From sequence record NC_054918.1: a DNA stretch of 64,000 nucleotides, one strand, 5' to 3'. Under the pieces are notes generated by a model. That model saw only the letters and a program-made list of their open reading frames with translations. It searched no databases and was not told where the DNA came from. Origin of the DNA: Escherichia phage vB_EcoM_G4498. Positions 56,408-64,000 of this stretch are shown one piece after another. The first letter of the stretch is position 1. Every line of letters starts with the position of its first letter. Both the position numbers and the translations under genes were made by a program.

Positions 56408-58465
56408 CTACATCTTGAACTTTTTAGACATTCCGTTGATGTTAACCAAAGAAGCTAAGATTTGAGAAACTTCGTTTTCCTCTTCTTTTGATTCTTCTAC
56501 AAGGAATTGATTAAATCCAGCCATTGGACGAACTTCACCAGTTTCCATTAGATGGTCGCCATCATATACTGATTCTTCTAATTGTTCAGAAGGAGGAACG
56601 ATTGTACCTTCGATTAGATACTTGTTATAAGCAGTTTCTTTCATAAAGTAAGTACTTACTTTATTAATCTTCAGTAAAATTCCACGTGGTAGAATAACTT
56701 CAGCTTCTGACGGAAATCCTGATAAATGACCCGGAACGATAACTTTGATTCGCTCAGCTCCTTTAATTACCATACCCACGCTAGTTTCAGCATCTTCATT
56801 AGCATATGTAGAATGACTACCCATATGCATCAAATCTTCTGCATCAACGGAACCTTCTCCTTCACCAGAAAATACTGCGCCGGAATCATCTAGAGCCATA
56901 TAGTTTTTACCATGCTCACCGAAGATATTTGGTTTAAGCGATGTGGATACGAAGTTCTTGAAATAGAACATTTTATTTTCAATGTTATGACGCAAAGTTT
57001 TAAAGGTAACTTCTTGTCCACGGTAAAGTGTAGTTCCTGGAGGAAGAACTGAACCTTTAGCGAATGCAGAATCAAGCGTCTCAATATGTTTAATAGCTCG
57101 TTCCATATATTCTTCACGGGTAGAATCTGGTTTACCCAAAAGGAACGAGTTCATTTCAACATATGAATCTGCACAATAATCTTCAATTACATCAGATTCA
57201 GCTTGAGTTAATCCTTTTGGAGTTACTTCAGTGCTTGCGTATTCATATGCCTGAGCAGCAGATTCATTAATCAATTTATAAATGCCATTCATGACAAATT
57301 GAATAATAGCTGTCTTTTCATCTGGCGTAGCTTTAGAACCTTTAACCAAATCATTGATAATTTTCTTAATAACATCAAAGCTATTAGAAATATTAATATC
57401 AGCAAGATCGCTTAAAATTTTATCAGTCTTATAATCAAAGAATTCTTTATTCTTTAAATATTCTTGAGAACCTTGATATGTTATATCGCTCTGTAACTTG
57501 ATAGATGGATCACGTAAACGTGCATGGGCTAATGCAATATGATTTCGGAAGCTTTCGAGTTCATAATCACTAGATTTAAAACGAGAAGCGCTTCTCATAC
57601 CGCCTATAGCTCCTTTGCTGAAGTTTGAACCAATTTGAATAACGCCAGAGTTCATTGGTCCTTCTGCTTTATACACCGGAACTTTAGATTCAAACTCTTG
57701 ATATTTCTTAGCAGCGAAGCTATCACCCTGAAGTGAAGCATCAACAGTAGAATATTGAGCTTGTGCTGCTAATCGACGACTAATTTTAGTTTTCTGAATA
57801 ACAGCTTGGTCCGTGCGCTTATCATTTTCTAAAGCAATAGAAGCAGCAACAGCAACAGCTTTAGGAACAGCATTACCTGTTTTAACATCTACATAAACAT
57901 CACCAACCTTTGATTCAACTTTTGTGAATAACTCAGTTGAAATAGGAGGTACACCTGGAATGTCTTCTAAATTGGCATTTTTACGATAAACCATAATATA
58001 TGCGTACTTTTTATCATAATCCCAGATTTCCTTTAAAAGAACATATCGACCTGCTCCTTTAGTACGTACTAAACGGTCAGCAATAACTTGCATTTGACGA
58101 GCAGCGCCATTTGTTTTACTCTTTAGTACGCGGAATAAGCATGCATCAATTTTATACTGTTTCATTGTTTGAAGAGCAGTATCAAAAACAGCGTTAATGA
58201 CGCCAATTGGATTTCCACCCAAGTTTCTAAGTTTAACCAGTGATAATTTCTCGTTGACACCTATCATTACGATATGCATCATTTTATCGCCCGGCTTAAC
58301 GTTTTTATTTGTATCACCTCCAGAGGTGTATGTACAAAATCTAAATCCAGGAAGCACGCTTTCTTCGCCGGCTTGAATAGCAAAAATTTGAGGTATTTTA
58401 TGCTTAGGATTTAAGTTAACAACCGGCGCCGAAGCGCCGTCAAATAATTCTGTAATAAGTTCCAT
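56408..58465 (-). CDS. Alt-like ADP-ribosyltransferase paralog, 685 aa
   Basis: shares N-terminal MELITELFD and overall length with the adjacent Alt; R-S-E signature (TLYRGQ, FVSTSL, SEAEVILP). Confidence 0.85.
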   Translation of the reverse strand: MELITELFDGASAPVVNLNPKHKIPQIFAIQAGEESVLPGFRFCTYTSGGDTNKNVKPGDKMMHIVMIGVNEKLSLVKLRNLGGNPIGVINAVFDTALQTMKQYKIDACLFRVLKSKTNGAARQMQVIADRLVRTKGAGRYVLLKEIWDYDKKYAYIMVYRKNANLEDIPGVPPISTELFTKVESKVGDVYVDVKTGNAVPKAVAVAASIALENDKRTDQAVIQKTKISRRLAAQAQYSTVDASLQGDSFAAKKYQEFESKVPVYKAEGPMNSGVIQIGSNFSKGAIGGMRSASRFKSSDYELESFRNHIALAHARLRDPSIKLQSDITYQGSQEYLKNKEFFDYKTDKILSDLADINISNSFDVIKKIINDLVKGSKATPDEKTAIIQFVMNGIYKLINESAAQAYEYASTEVTPKGLTQAESDVIEDYCADSYVEMNSFLLGKPDSTREEYMERAIKHIETLDSAFAKGSVLPPGTTLYRGQEVTFKTLRHNIENKMFYFKNFVSTSLKPNIFGEHGKNYMALDDSGAVFSGEGEGSVDAEDLMHMGSHSTYANEDAETSVGMVIKGAERIKVIVPGHLSGFPSEAEVILPRGILLKINKVSTYFMKETAYNKYLIEGTIVPPSEQLEESVYDGDHLMETGEVRPMAGFNQFLVEESKEEENEVSQILASLVNINGMSKKFKM

Positions 58466-58468
58466 GAT

Positions 58469-60517
58469 TTATCCTTGAACGAACTTGTAAGGCATGTTTG
58501 TAATATCTATGCAAGACGCAATAATTCCAAGAGATGATTCTACTTTCTGTTTAACATTTGATGAAACAAATGATGCAAAGTCAACTCTATCTTCTATATC
58601 ACCTGTCATTGTAACTACTTCGCCGGTTTCCATTAAACGGTCACCGTCATAAATTACTGATTCGGTGAGTTCTTCGGTGGTCATAACTTCAGCTTGAATA
58701 AGCTTGTTGTTAGTTTTGACTGTTCCATCATTGTAAGATGCATCAGTTATTTTATTAACTTTGACCATTAATCCACGTGGCAAAATGACTTCCATTTCAT
58801 TTGAAGGCGCTAAACTTCCACCGGGTAAAACAACATTGACTTTATCAGCCCCAGTAATAACCCATCCAATTCCGACTAAATTATCGCTAGAATTAACAAG
58901 CCCTTCATCATTTTTATCGATAGAAATGTTTAGACGCTTTTCATCTGGTAAAACACCAACAGCTGAATCAGTCATCCAAGTACCAAAAATGTTTGGATAT
59001 AATGATGTTGATACAAAATTTCTAAAATAAAAAACTCGATTTTTTACCATTGCTTCGTATATTGAAGGTAACATTCGTTGTGAACGATACAAAGTAATAC
59101 CTTTTGGTAATCGTTCACCATTTTTAAAGGCTGAATCTAAATTATCAATAGCTTTTTCTATGTCAGATGCTGTCAAAATACTTGTACGCTCATCTGGATT
59201 ATATAATCCCAAAAGAGCATTATTTATGTCTACATATCCTGAACCTACGTATTCACGAATTCCGCGTTTTTGTGCTGGTGTGTATTTAGATGAATCTTTA
59301 TTTTCGACTATAGGATGTAATGACCATCCAGCTGTAAGAGCATATCCACGTAATTCTCTTCGAATAATCTTTGTTTTTATTGCATTCCAAGAATTTTGTA
59401 CTAACTCATTTGCAGCATCTTGGTTTAAATGCGAATGTTTGTTAATATTTCTTTCAAACCAAGCACCTTTATATTTTTCTAAAGTATCATCGACGATAGA
59501 AGCAATAGTTTCTAAAGTTTTTATTGAAGTAATAGATTCTTTTCGTAATTTTTCTAAAGCTTTATTTTTTATTTCTGCATTAATAATGGATTCTTTATCT
59601 TCAGGAATTATAGAAGCTTCTCTGAATGCCATCCCAGCTGTAACACTGCTAAGAGCATTCTCTAGTGCAAATCCTGAAGTAGAAATTACCGTTAATTCAT
59701 TAGAATCAGAAATTAAAGGCGCATCAGCGGGTTTATTTAATTCTGCTGCTGAAGCCTCAAATTTTTGAAACATCGGTGTTTCAAATCTAGAAGATTCCAA
59801 TGACTGACTTTGTGCAATTGCTCTACGGGAAATTTTAACTTTAACGATTACAGCTTGGTCAGAACGTTTATCATTTTCTTGTGCAATAGATGCTGCAATT
59901 GCCTCATTTTTGGTTACTTGAGCTCCGGTATCTTTATTGATATAAACATCACCGACCTTCGATTCAACTTTAGTAAAGAGCTCGGTACTAATTTCCGGAA
60001 CTCCTGGAATGTCTTCTAGTGATACATTTTTGCGATGTATAAGAATATATGCATACTTTTTATCATAATCCCAGAGTTCCTTAAGAAGGACGTATCTGCC
60101 ACCTGAACGACTACGGATAAGTCTATCAGCAATAACTTGAATTTGTCGAGCTTGACCAGCGGTTTTAGACTTAAGAATACGAAGCATACAAGCATCAATT
60201 TTATACTGACGCATTGTTTGCATTGCAACAGTAAAAACTGAATTGATATAATTAATTGGGCTTGGACCAAGACCTTTTAATTTAGCAATTGAACCTTTAG
60301 CGGTTAATGTAAAAGGAACAATATGCATCATTTTATCGCCCATTTTTAAATCGCGATTAGTATCACCTCCAGATGTATAGGTACATAAACGAAAGCCTGG
60401 TTGTTCAATTGCATCATCAACATGAACTGAAAAAATTTGCGGTATTTTCTTCTTTGGATTTAAGTTTGTAATCGGAAGAGTAGTATCTTCGTCAAATAAT
60501 TCTGTAATAAGTTCCAT
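58469..60517 (-). CDS. alt: Alt ADP-ribosyltransferase (capsid-packaged), 682 aa
   Basis: R-S-E signature (TLYRSQ, FVSTSL, NEMEVILP); late promoter upstream; second ATG chosen for RBS spacing. Confidence 0.88.
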   Translation of the reverse strand: MELITELFDEDTTLPITNLNPKKKIPQIFSVHVDDAIEQPGFRLCTYTSGGDTNRDLKMGDKMMHIVPFTLTAKGSIAKLKGLGPSPINYINSVFTVAMQTMRQYKIDACMLRILKSKTAGQARQIQVIADRLIRSRSGGRYVLLKELWDYDKKYAYILIHRKNVSLEDIPGVPEISTELFTKVESKVGDVYINKDTGAQVTKNEAIAASIAQENDKRSDQAVIVKVKISRRAIAQSQSLESSRFETPMFQKFEASAAELNKPADAPLISDSNELTVISTSGFALENALSSVTAGMAFREASIIPEDKESIINAEIKNKALEKLRKESITSIKTLETIASIVDDTLEKYKGAWFERNINKHSHLNQDAANELVQNSWNAIKTKIIRRELRGYALTAGWSLHPIVENKDSSKYTPAQKRGIREYVGSGYVDINNALLGLYNPDERTSILTASDIEKAIDNLDSAFKNGERLPKGITLYRSQRMLPSIYEAMVKNRVFYFRNFVSTSLYPNIFGTWMTDSAVGVLPDEKRLNISIDKNDEGLVNSSDNLVGIGWVITGADKVNVVLPGGSLAPSNEMEVILPRGLMVKVNKITDASYNDGTVKTNNKLIQAEVMTTEELTESVIYDGDRLMETGEVVTMTGDIEDRVDFASFVSSNVKQKVESSLGIIASCIDITNMPYKFVQG

Positions 60518-60540
60518 CATAGCCTCTCTAGTGTTTATTC

Positions 60541-60548
60541 TATTTATA
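60541..60548 (-). promoter_or_regulatory. T4 late promoter TATAAATA on minus strand (alt)
   Basis: plus-strand TATTTATA about 21 nt upstream of the alt ATG. Confidence 0.6.
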
Positions 60549-60553
60549 AAATT

Positions 60554-60571
60554 AAAGGCCCGAAGGCCTTT
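60554..60571 (-). terminator. Hairpin (AAGGCC-CGAA-GGCCTT) ending the upstream early transcript
   Basis: perfect inverted repeat overlapping the stop of the 60570..60758 ORF. Confidence 0.5.
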
Positions 60572-60758
60572 AGTAATCTAGTGGTAAGAGAGTACGATAT
60601 ATTTCAAACTTTGGTCCTTTTTCATAGGCATCAAATGTTTCTGTAAATTTATTATAAGCGTATGCATCTACAAATTCGAGAATGACTTGTGATACAGAAG
60701 TAGAAACATCTCCACCTTCTTTTTGAGCAATGACAATTGTTTCTAAGTAAGCTTTCAT
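60570..60758 (-). CDS. Hypothetical small protein, 62 aa
   Basis: ORF with ATGA overlap to the ligase stop. Confidence 0.6.
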   Translation of the reverse strand: MKAYLETIVIAQKEGGDVSTSVSQVILEFVDAYAYNKFTETFDAYEKGPKFEIYRTLLPLDY

Positions 60759-62218
60759 AAACCAGTTACCTCATGAAAATCACCAAATACATCCTCGAAT
60801 GTATTAGCTTTAGTTTTATCTTCACGTAAACGAATCGCAATCGGAAGAAATAATTTAACGTAATCAGTGCGGCCATCAGATTTTAACCAACCGTTGCATT
60901 CGCACTCTAGAATTTTTCCAATATAATAATTTTGGTTTTCCATAATGCGAGTACGGTCAAGTTCATGCGATTTTACACCGGCTTTATCTTTTAAGCCTGA
61001 ACCAGCATTTACCTTAATTTTTCCACACTCTGATTCAAGAATAAATCCACCCGCTTTAGTAGGGTCTTTACGGTGAGGATAAATTCCTACAATTTTTAAA
61101 TCAACATCAATTACTTCTTTAAATTTATAGAGATTTTTTGAACGAGCATTTTCCCACAATCCATCGGTATTTTTGAGAATAATACCTTCAAGACCTTGGT
61201 CAATATACTTTTTATAAATTACCTTAGCTTCATCTAGGTTATTTACTACCTGGTTTTCAATTAAAATTACTTTATCATAACCTGATGTCATTTGTTCTAG
61301 TTTAGAAAAACGTACATCATATTTCAAACGAAATGCAGGAAGACCGTATATTTCTACCAACGGGACATAATCCCAGACCTGAAACTTCATGCATTGAGCT
61401 TCTTTTTCAGAAATGGTTCCCTTTAAAGATTTATTGGCGATGCCATTAGATGCAGTACGTGATTCAGCTACTTCGGCGAATTCTTTAGCTTTACTAATTT
61501 CAGGATAAGCATCAAAAAGAAAATCTAGGCCTTCTGGCTCCTTTTCAACTTGCTCATGGTATACCAATTCGCCATCAATTAACACACCTTCTGGATGAAT
61601 CTGGCGAGCTTCTGCAGTCATTTTGATTAACTCTTCCTTAAGAAGATCTAATCCTAGATATTCATTACCAGCTCGTGATAAAAGACGAACATCATCTAAT
61701 TCATCACCTCTGACTTCAGCAAAACACCGAGCTCCATCAGCTTTTAACTGGGCAAAGGCTGGAAATTTGATATTCTTATTAATGCCTTTTTCATCATAAG
61801 AACTTGCAAGCATTTGAGGTTGTTCAGGAATTAAACCTGGCCAAACTTTGTTTGCAATAGATACTGAAGCACCGCATTCAAGGTCTCGCATCATCACCCG
61901 ACGCAAAACTTCAACATCATCTTTTTTACCGTCAGTAATATATCCAGTTAATTCCTCAATTGCCGCATTTCCAGTCAATTTCCGAGTAGCTAACGTGAAT
62001 TCAATGAAGTCAAGCATATCGGTAAGAGTCAACATTCCAAAACTCTGGGTAGCAATACCTGGTTTAGGCCATTTCTTGATATAATACTGTAACCCACGAG
62101 AATAAGTCAGACGATATACTCGTTTAAGCAATTCATTATCTTTATTCTTTTCAAGAATTGCTTGCTTCTGCTTAGTTGAACCAATAGATGCTATTTCGTT
62201 CAGAATTTTAAGAATCAT
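60755..62218 (-). CDS. 30: ATP-dependent DNA ligase gp30
   Basis: 487 aa; adenylation motif KADGAR; synteny next to alt. Confidence 0.95.
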   Translation of the reverse strand: MILKILNEIASIGSTKQKQAILEKNKDNELLKRVYRLTYSRGLQYYIKKWPKPGIATQSFGMLTLTDMLDFIEFTLATRKLTGNAAIEELTGYITDGKKDDVEVLRRVMMRDLECGASVSIANKVWPGLIPEQPQMLASSYDEKGINKNIKFPAFAQLKADGARCFAEVRGDELDDVRLLSRAGNEYLGLDLLKEELIKMTAEARQIHPEGVLIDGELVYHEQVEKEPEGLDFLFDAYPEISKAKEFAEVAESRTASNGIANKSLKGTISEKEAQCMKFQVWDYVPLVEIYGLPAFRLKYDVRFSKLEQMTSGYDKVILIENQVVNNLDEAKVIYKKYIDQGLEGIILKNTDGLWENARSKNLYKFKEVIDVDLKIVGIYPHRKDPTKAGGFILESECGKIKVNAGSGLKDKAGVKSHELDRTRIMENQNYYIGKILECECNGWLKSDGRTDYVKLFLPIAIRLREDKTKANTFEDVFGDFHEVTGL

Positions 62219-62484
62219 TGTTCATCCTTTAGAGTTTGGTTTACAGCTCTATTATAAATCAATTCATCATTAAGCTCAGTCAAAGACCTGTGGTACGTGG
62301 TTCTAACTTTATTTCCTTGCATCCAGTGCTTGACGTAAATGAAACCTTGCTCTACACATTTTTTAAAAATTCGTTCGTCTTTTTGAGCTCGGAATTCTGG
62401 ATTGCATCTAAAAAATTGATTTACGTGACCGTAATCACGTGTAGTATTACCTTCATTTTCATAAATAGTATGAACAACAAACAT
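62215..62484 (-). CDS. Hypothetical protein, 89 aa
   Basis: ORF translationally coupled (ATGA) to the ligase gene. Confidence 0.65.
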   Translation of the reverse strand: MFVVHTIYENEGNTTRDYGHVNQFFRCNPEFRAQKDERIFKKCVEQGFIYVKHWMQGNKVRTTYHRSLTELNDELIYNRAVNQTLKDEQ

Positions 62485-63323
62485 TAGAATGCTCCTTGGA
62501 AAATATTATCACCACTAGTAGGTCTATTATACAAATACTCTATGCCACCAGGTTTAATATAGTTCCATGTCTGAAACGGATGTGTCTGATATGGATGATA
62601 TAGATGATTATAAGGATTAAATCCAGGAGTTCTCCAGGTAGTGTTCCAAGGAAAAGAATCGTTTTTGATCATCTTCTCAATTACATCTTTTATAGCTTTT
62701 TCACTATCAAAACTTTCTTTATTTTCCTTTGGTGAAAAAAGCTTATTTTCTACATCATTCCATGTATAAACTCGCTGTGCAGTTTTTGGAATATTGTCAC
62801 GCTCTCCTCGAGCCATCCAATAAACAGGAACATTTAATATTTCACTCGCGTGATCGCAGTGGTGAGCGAGATCGTCAATATAACAAATTACGTTATATTT
62901 CTCTTTTGCCTTTTTGAACAACTCTTCTTTTGAAGAATCATGACCACACATCAATACTTCTGAGAAGGCACCAGGAAAAAGAGCATTCAAATTAAATTGA
63001 CGATTCAGCAGAGCGTCAATAGAATCACCCAATGCTGTAACAGCTACAAAATTATAATCTTCTTTTAATTTGTTAATTACACACAGGGCATCTTTATATG
63101 GAGACAAGTAACGAATAAAATCTGAACGATTGTATTTTTCAATTAACTTGACGCCAAGTTCTTCATCACAATTAAAGAGTTTACCAGGAGAAATAAATTT
63201 CTCATCTTGGATCATTTTTAAAATATGTTCTAACGGAAGATTATATTTCTGAGCAAAATAAGGAAGGCCTGATTGCCAGCTTAAACATACTCCATCAATA
63301 TCAGTTAAAATAGTAGGCTTCAT
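62484..63323 (-). CDS. HAD-superfamily hydrolase-like protein, 279 aa
   Basis: N-terminal motif ILTDIDGV (HAD motif I DxDG); TAATG overlap downstream. Confidence 0.65.
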   Translation of the reverse strand: MKPTILTDIDGVCLSWQSGLPYFAQKYNLPLEHILKMIQDEKFISPGKLFNCDEELGVKLIEKYNRSDFIRYLSPYKDALCVINKLKEDYNFVAVTALGDSIDALLNRQFNLNALFPGAFSEVLMCGHDSSKEELFKKAKEKYNVICYIDDLAHHCDHASEILNVPVYWMARGERDNIPKTAQRVYTWNDVENKLFSPKENKESFDSEKAIKDVIEKMIKNDSFPWNTTWRTPGFNPYNHLYHPYQTHPFQTWNYIKPGGIEYLYNRPTSGDNIFQGAF

Positions 63324-63778
63324 AGAGAGTCTCTTAATAGGTTTAACACATCAATAAATTCAGCTTCGGTTAATATTGTATCATCTTTTGTTAGACCACT
63401 AGCCATGCTGTGCTTCAAAACTTTTCCTTTCGAGGCGTGTAATGCATCACGAAAGCCCTTGTTTTGGATCGCTGCTTCAAAATATGCATTTGTGTATAAT
63501 TCTTTCCATGCTGGGGAGTATCTTGAAAACGGAACTCCAAGCCAGAAGAGGGTCCCACGGTCCTGAGCTCTAGCATAAGACCTTCCAGCTTGTTGGGCGG
63601 CAAGCCCGGATAACCCAAATATACGACGTTGTTGTTCAGCATTTTTCACCTTGCATCCTTGGAGGAATCCTTCAAGACCTCCGAATTGAATACCATCCAT
63701 GACGAAAGGCCATTGGGCGAAATTACTTAATGCACACGATGGCCATCTAAAATTGCTTCTAATCTCTAACTCAGACAT
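63320..63778 (-). CDS. NADAR / YbiA-like (DUF1768) protein, about 152 aa
   Basis: segment LSNFAQWPFVMDGIQFGGLEGFLQGCKV resembles the YbiA core FSNFAAWPIKVDGKTWPTSEHYFQAQKF as I recall it; track start at 63784 is TTG, ATG at 63778. Confidence 0.6.
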   Translation of the reverse strand: MSELEIRSNFRWPSCALSNFAQWPFVMDGIQFGGLEGFLQGCKVKNAEQQRRIFGLSGLAAQQAGRSYARAQDRGTLFWLGVPFSRYSPAWKELYTNAYFEAAIQNKGFRDALHASKGKVLKHSMASGLTKDDTILTEAEFIDVLNLLRDSL

Positions 63779-63977
63779 TTTCAATACTTATAATTTCAAC
63801 ATCAGCCCAATGACCATAGCAAGGAAGACGAAATTCAACTGGCCAGTTAGGGTCCTTTTCTAATATAATAGACTTAACTTGTGGTTCTTCATGTTCATCA
63901 GTATATGGATTTTTATCTGTTACTTTATATGTGACCTTAATGTACTGAATTCCAAAAATCTTATTAATTATATTCAT
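63771..63977 (-). CDS. Hypothetical protein, 68 aa
   Basis: ORF with ATG and AAGGAA RBS; overlaps the downstream gene start. Confidence 0.6.
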   Translation of the reverse strand: MNIINKIFGIQYIKVTYKVTDKNPYTDEHEEPQVKSIILEKDPNWPVEFRLPCYGHWADVEIISIENV

Positions 63978-64000
63978 ACTAATTCCTTTAATCCGTAGAT

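Follow-up and report, generated by a model that had tools for sequence, protein, structure and literature searches.

Gene 30.3 of Escherichia phage vB_EcoM_G4498 (sequence record NC_054918.1), also named adfN, lies on the minus strand close to the end of the 64,000-nucleotide stretch analysed here (the window), and almost certainly encodes an active DNA guanine-ADP-ribose glycohydrolase that would protect this phage from the DarTG1 defence system, as has been shown for T4. The overall explanation that we favour, with high confidence, combines this anti-DarTG1 protein of the NADAR superfamily with a separate phosphatase of the HAD superfamily, encoded by the adjoining gene 30.2 and linked to the DNA ligase gene, not to adfN. 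An initial annotation of the window, made from the sequence alone, had presented a NADAR/YbiA-like protein coupled to a HAD-like hydrolase. Both open reading frames (ORFs) exist on the minus strand where it had placed them, but a functional partnership between their products is not supported by the transposon data and linkage counts described below.

The function of AdfN has been established in T4. Johannesman et al. (Nat Commun 2025, PMC11825919) found gene 30.3 to be responsible for the DarTG1 resistance of T-even phages and gave it the name adfN. In that study deletion of adfN sensitised T4 to DarTG1, ectopic T4 AdfN restored plaquing of RB69 on DarTG1 hosts, and E36A, K43A and a C-terminal truncation of the RB69 type each impaired the T4 protein; purified T4 AdfN stripped ADP-ribose from DarT1-modified DNA in vitro, and AdfN did not bind DarT1. 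An independent study found that the T4 protein hydrolyses guanine-linked, not thymine-linked, ADP-ribose in vitro (PMC11125620). A T4 transposon screen showed 30.3 to be non-essential on K-12 and lost on DarTG1 (log2 fold change -7.25, adjusted P 0). The two papers and a HIDEN-SEQ preprint (10.1101/2025.11.20.689424) provide, for a T4 protein 98% identical to the one encoded here, experimental demonstration of the counter-DarT role that the initial annotation had put forward. The presence of T4-like NADARs among early genes beside ADP-ribosyltransferase (ART) genes had been noted in 2022 (PMC9503650).

The gene and its catalytic codons are located as follows.

63320..63778, minus strand: gene 30.3 (adfN), 152 residues, ATG start; matches PF08010, E 1.7e-69
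63671..63673, minus strand: adfN codon for catalytic E36
63650..63652, minus strand: adfN codon for catalytic K43
63410..63412, minus strand: adfN codon for catalytic H123

The gp30.3 sequence is identical to T4 gp30.3 at 149 of 152 positions, with the same length and the same C-terminus through residue 152; the substitutions relative to T4 (A47V, H114Q and M125I) are conservative. The allele is therefore full length and keeps every residue tested in the T4 studies, from which it follows that the hypothesis favoured by the initial annotation is correct and was already published. The start at 63784 given in the mechanical ORF list is a TTG codon in the same frame, lying two codons before the ATG at 63778 from which 30.3 starts in T4.

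That gp30.3 belongs to the phage clade of the NADAR superfamily is established here without recourse to the literature, by its Pfam match, its conserved residues, the matches of its relatives and its predicted fold. The match to PF08010 (Phage_30_3) scores 232 bits against a cutoff of 36 and spans profile positions 1-138 of 138. The SNFA-WP...DG...E..Q..K core from which the initial annotation had recognised a YbiA-like protein is present, running from S18 through K43 (S18-N19-F20-A21-x-W23-P24, D28-G29, E36, Q40, K43), and a phmmer search of PDB sequences returned YbiA (2b3w, E 1.3) as its sole match, over this same stretch. When 49 relatives, down to 34% identity, were aligned, all 49 matched PF08010 and 17 also matched PF08719, the NADAR family itself (best E 1.5e-7). 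Residues P13, A16-L17-S18-N19-F20, F25, E36-G37-F38, Q40 and H123 are invariant in this alignment and K43 is at least 90% conserved; the catalytic residues are thus conserved. The roles of the catalytic Glu, Lys and last-strand His are taken from published work (PMC11825919, PMC11125620, PMC11543638).

An AlphaFold2 model of gp30.3 built on the alignment is of high confidence (mean predicted local distance difference test, pLDDT, 92.9; predicted template modelling score, pTM, 0.88). In this model H123 ends the last beta strand (residues 120-123), and the C-terminal helix (residues 138-151) is present, with no truncation by an RB69-type frameshift. The comparison with YbiA proposed in the initial annotation gave the anticipated result: a Foldseek search of the PDB placed E. 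coli YbiA (2B3W) at the top (E 7.8e-5, template modelling score 0.69), followed by the NADARs of Phytophthora (8BAU, with ADP-ribose) and Geobacter lovleyi (8BAT). The last two have Foldseek probabilities of 1.00 and 0.95, and all lower PDB matches are at or below 0.07.

The closest known system is T4 AdfN, with which gp30.3 shares its gene neighbours, its length, E36 and K43, the last-strand His and the intact C-terminal helix, the three substitutions being the only differences. The fold is also that of the NADAR antitoxins associated with DarG1/DarT1 (the BC4488 family, including those of G. lovleyi and E. coli C7), and gp30.3 would have in common with them the hydrolysis of guanine-N2-ADP-ribose in DNA. 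These antitoxins, however, carry a last-strand Asp and have a cognate DarT, whereas gp30.3 carries His and has no adjoining DarT; and, unlike them, AdfN fails, according to the literature, to rescue uninfected cells from DarT1 toxicity. YbiA and PF08719 share the SNF...W-P...DG...E..Q..K core, but YbiA is only 18% identical to gp30.3, has a last-strand Glu, and has a reported role in the cleavage of an N-glycoside of a riboflavin intermediate; gp30.3 falls below the reporting level of PF08719. The last-strand residue is described as Glu in YbiA-type NADARs, Asp in those linked to DarT1 and His in the phage gp30.3 proteins (PMC11125620; PMC11543638).

In the proposed mechanism, a DarTG1 host would sense infection and its DarT1 would add ADP-ribose to guanine N2 in single-stranded phage DNA, blocking replication. 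AdfN would then hydrolyse the guanine N-glycosidic bond and free the ADP-ribose, allowing replication to resume. Residues E36 and K43 would hold the distal ribose, and H123 on the last strand would take the place of the Glu or Asp of cellular NADARs. These steps have been shown by others for T4, and the 98% identity, the conserved residues and the predicted fold suggest that they apply in this phage also.

Two further observations concern the gp30.3 coding region. The protein aligns to positions 126-272 of the 296-position phrog_652 profile, so that some members of phrog_652 must be longer at the N-terminus by about 125 residues; N-terminal extensions also occur in two relatives, each of 201 residues (P0133 and P0135). 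A 75-residue ORF in another frame inside adfN (63415..63642, minus strand) corresponds to 30.3' in the T4 annotation ("internal translation in a different reading frame"). An alternative-frame ORF of 53-75 residues with an ATG start is retained in close T4/RB69-like relatives and is absent from most of the distant gp30.3 genes; with little sign of a conserved second product, 30.3' was rejected as a part of the system.

In its last 3.5 kb the window carries six genes, all read from the minus strand and packed so closely that the stop codon of one overlaps or almost touches the start codon of the next. These genes and the ART gene that follows them are, in order of transcription, with adfN listed above:

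63771..63977, minus strand: gene 30.4, 68 residues; phrog_2042, E 2.2e-35; no Pfam match
62484..63323, minus strand: gene 30.2, 279 residues, HAD-type, 274/279 identical to T4 gp30.2
62215..62484, minus strand: gene 30.1 (DUF3045), 89 residues, between 30.2 and the ligase gene; PF11243, E 2.9e-64
60755..62218, minus strand: gene 30, ATP-dependent DNA ligase; PF01068, E 1.1e-32
60570..60758, minus strand: alt.1, followed by a terminator-like hairpin
58469..60520, minus strand: Alt-type ADP-ribosyltransferase; PF03496, E 3.1e-36

The gene order agrees with the T4 reference annotation. The DNA from 62215 to 63977 is 99.9% identical to several Tequatrovirus genomes (T4-like coliphages), and at least 80% of it is covered in 494 phage records. 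The phage is a T4-like coliphage, and the locus is its block of early genes 30.4-30.3-30.2-30.1-30. Genes 30.3 and 30.2 are genuine genes and not chance ORFs, on the evidence of the PF08010 match and of about 98% identity to T4 gp30.3 and gp30.2. At the 30.4/30.3 junction, ATGTCTGA, gene 30.4 overlaps the adfN start by 8 nucleotides; the 30.3/30.2 junction is ATGA, an overlap of 4 nucleotides; at the 30.2/30.1 junction (TAATG) and the 30.1/30 junction (ATGA) the stop codon of the first gene likewise overlaps the start of the next. The initial annotation had called 30.2 the overlapping upstream gene. The overlap is as described, but 30.2 is upstream in plus-strand coordinates only; in transcription it is downstream of 30.3, and 30.4 is the gene immediately upstream. 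A promoter and terminator scan of 60400..64000 found sites to be no commoner than in shuffled sequence, the sole notable one being the hairpin after alt.1 (60572..60553).

The neighbouring ligase and ART genes named in the initial annotation are confirmed by the PF01068 and PF03496 matches. The ARTs near adfN are of the Alt type and not DarT, and its immediate neighbours are 30.4 and 30.2. As no cognate DarT adjoins it, adfN is an orphan antitoxin-like gene and not part of a toxin-antitoxin operon of the DarTG1 type.

Gene 30.2 begins with the N-terminal sequence MKPTILTDIDGV, in which the DIDGV motif read by the initial annotation as HAD motif I is present at residues 8-12 (DxDGV). Taken as a single sequence, gp30.2 has no match in Pfam, NCBIfam or the PDB sequences, and the HAD assignment therefore rests on the motifs of the family alignment, the predicted structure and fold searches. 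A HAD profile search, as first suggested, thus fails for gp30.2 itself and succeeds weakly for 10 of 39 relatives, which match PF00702 (best E 3.5e-4); six of the 39 weakly match PF06941 (NT5C; best E 1.2e-4) and five match PF13419. The gp30.2 sequence also matches an unannotated PHROG and, weakly, a polynucleotide-kinase PHROG (E 0.0027), and the best hit of the family profile among PDB sequences was mouse 5'(3')-deoxyribonucleotidase (2jao), at a marginal E of 0.074. All four HAD motifs are conserved in the 39 relatives, and they were located, together with the domains defined from the motifs and an AlphaFold2 model, as follows.

62724..63323, minus strand: HAD domain with C1 cap, gp30.2 residues 1-200
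63300..63302 and 63294..63296, minus strand: motif I, D8 and D10; D8-x-D10-G11 invariant
63036..63038, minus strand: motif II, T96; at least 90% conserved
62928..62930, minus strand: motif III, K132; invariant
62871..62876, minus strand: motif IV, D150-D151; at least 90% conserved
62484..62723, minus strand: tail, residues 201-279 and stop codon; low-confidence, rich in Pro, Asn and aromatic residues

The model is confident over residues 1-200 (pLDDT mostly above 90) and disordered at residues 239-279 (pLDDT below 50). It has a Rossmann-like core with strands at residues 4-7, 91-96, 120-125, 145-150 and 167-169, and a four-helix insertion (residues 16-65) that forms a C1 cap; the motifs are placed where strands 4-7, 91-96 and 145-150 end. 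The top 50 Foldseek matches in the PDB are all HAD enzymes, the best whole-protein match being the capped, NT5C-like 3bwv, and the assignment to the HAD superfamily is accordingly sound. In that superfamily a cap goes with small-molecule substrates, whereas enzymes that lack one, such as Pnkp, act on polymer ends. From its fold and motifs gp30.2 is, in all likelihood, a Mg-dependent HAD phosphatase acting through an aspartyl-phosphate. Since it is capped, a small phosphorylated substrate would be expected, and the nearest whole-protein matches suggest a nucleotide, for example a (deoxy)nucleotide, although we put this forward only tentatively.

The gp30.2 protein is 14-20% identical to the NT5C 5'(3')-deoxyribonucleotidases (human cdN and mdN and S. 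epidermidis 3BWV), from which it differs in an extra, disordered tail of 80 residues and in the confinement of its family to T4-like phages. The HAD 3'-phosphatase domain of T4 polynucleotide kinase-phosphatase (Pnkp; 1LTQ, 5UJ0) is capless and forms part of a fusion with a kinase, whereas gp30.2 has the four-helix cap and no kinase domain. Nearly all of the 100 relatives returned from a large protein database belong to T4-like phages, and a few had been named automatically as HAD-superfamily hydrolase or 5'(3')-deoxyribonucleotidase; a literature search on gp30.2 and gene 30.2 found no relevant paper. When 185,579 prokaryotic genomes (one per species) were scanned, a single relative was found, in a Flagellimonas marina assembly (locus L162, NZ_JBHSCL010000010.1 120304-130939; contig of 178,077 bp). 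In its size and 48% identity this locus resembles contigs of T4-like phages such as that of locus L038 (178,768 bp), and the contig is probably phage DNA that was assembled along with the bacterial genome. The gp30.2 family is therefore essentially phage-only. The tail varies greatly in length and sequence among relatives, and is missing from many, of about 200 residues. Near the end of the long-tailed relatives a motif, G-(I/T)-E-Y-L-x-x-(R/Q)-P-T, recurs, which looks like a docking peptide for some partner.

The relation of gp30.2 to AdfN was examined in 80 viral loci anchored on gp30.2 relatives and 80 anchored on gp30.3 relatives, searched with profiles and phmmer and described by simple counts, and in the published T4 transposon data. 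Around gp30.2, a gp30.3 gene lies within 6 kb in 36 of the 80 loci and is directly adjacent in 22; none is found in 37 loci that extend 3 kb or more to either side. Around gp30.3, gp30.2 is present in 19 of the 80 loci and absent from 48 of the 66 that are well flanked. Several complete phage genomes carry the two genes about 57 kb apart. In the T4 data on DarTG1, insertions in 30.2 (71 sites) are neutral, with a log2 fold change of -0.12 (P 0.61). Because these insertions have no effect and the genes are so often unlinked, we see no functional coupling; gene 30.2 is dispensable for DarTG1 counter-defence, and gp30.2 and AdfN are, with good confidence, not an obligate pair. The alternative is a two-step pathway, with AdfN freeing ADP-ribose or a phosphorylated form of it from DNA for breakdown by the HAD phosphatase, or an arrangement in which gp30.2 acts as a T-even cofactor of AdfN. 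Their overlapping stop and start codons in one operon and the 22 adjacent loci would fit such a scheme, as would the proposal of an additional phage protein needed for full AdfN activity in T-even infections (PMC11825919), but the neutral insertions, the many loci with one gene and not the other and the genomes in which they are widely separated make it very improbable. As the missing AdfN cofactor gp30.2 was rejected on the transposon data and linkage counts. The 4-nucleotide overlap would more simply reflect the compact packing of operons in T-even phages than a common pathway.

Several points weigh against the explanation that we favour, an anti-DarTG1 AdfN and a HAD phosphatase independent of it. 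The gp30.3 protein itself has no match to PF08719 at E of 1 or below, so that of the NADAR/DUF1768 profile evidence sought by the initial annotation the direct match is absent, although the sister family PF08010, the relatives and the fold are all positive. A47V, H114Q and M125I distinguish the protein from the one assayed in T4, and although none falls at an invariant column its activity is predicted from sequence. AdfN is fully active only during T-even infection, and part of its mechanism is therefore still unexplained. To these may be added the lack of single-sequence matches to gp30.2 described above. The transposon data come from one phage and one DarTG1 allele under laboratory conditions, and 30.2 might contribute under other conditions; the loci in the linkage sample are not phylogenetically independent, and their counts are descriptive and not statistics.

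The gene with which 30.2 does travel in evolution is that of DNA ligase, and not adfN; here the direction of the counts is clear. Of the 80 gp30.2 loci, 75 have a ligase homolog encoded on the same strand, in 70 cases no more than 700 nucleotides away, and this proximity persists although the intervening gene 30.1 (DUF3045) comes and goes; in five loci the ligase gene is upstream, not downstream. The linkage invites the idea that gp30.2 is a partner of the ligase, either a 3'-phosphatase that heals nicks for sealing by gp30, in the manner of the Pnkp HAD domain, or an enzyme for the removal of some nucleotide with an effect on ligation. This is the main rival account of 30.2, but we regard it as doubtful. 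The 60-residue helical C1 cap (helices in residues 16-65) does not suit an enzyme of polymer ends, which are taken by capless HADs, and the best whole-protein match is a capped, NT5C-like enzyme; synteny is broadly conserved among T4-like phages, so that adjacency alone is weak evidence; and in T4 30.2 is non-essential while the ligase is essential. A dedicated accessory of the T4-type ligase, a phage-restricted heal-and-seal or nucleotide-clearing module that might dock through its tail motif, would explain the persistence of 30.2 beside the ligase gene in 70 of 80 loci, including those with the order of the genes reversed, and is a similarly speculative proposal.

Gene 30.4 and the ART genes bear on what else might act with, or upon, AdfN. 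Among all the genes in the published T4 transposon data, only 30.4 shares with 30.3 a significant depletion on DarTG1 (log2 fold change -1.79, adjusted P 0.014), a result that the authors of the dataset do not discuss. As 30.4 overlaps the adfN start by 8 nucleotides, the depletion is most simply explained by polarity or translational coupling, but 30.4 could be a T-even-specific helper of AdfN. Single-sequence phmmer searches detected its homologs only in close T4/RB69-like loci. Beyond alt.1 the window contains two full-length Alt-type ADP-ribosyltransferase paralogs in tandem, at 56408..58465 and 58469..60520 on the minus strand. They have 685 and 683 residues and are 41% identical, and the YR..., STS and E-x-E active-site stretches are kept in both; in T4, by the notes of its record, the second alt copy is reduced to the fragments alt.-1 and alt.-2. 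With these paralogs 2.8-7 kb away and transcribed in the same direction, AdfN might serve mainly to undo or adjust the ADP-ribosylation carried out by Alt, ModA or ModB of the phage itself, which would explain its position near the alt genes. There is little to recommend this, however, as every NADAR assayed to date acts on ADP-ribose linked to guanine in DNA and not on that linked to thymine (PMC11125620), the only adfN phenotype found in T4 is sensitivity to DarTG1, the gene being non-essential on plain K-12, and many gp30.3 homologs are on contigs without a nearby alt or ligase gene (ligase in 18 of the 80 gp30.3 loci).

The presence of adfN in vB_EcoM_G4498 in itself confirms only that this phage should resist DarTG1. 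The threads that the locus leaves to follow are the role of the phage-only HAD gene and its linkage to DNA ligase, the DarTG1 signal on 30.4, and the restriction of full AdfN activity to T-even infections. AdfN itself is a textbook-in-the-making case of a phage orphan antitoxin that undoes a DNA modification made by the host.

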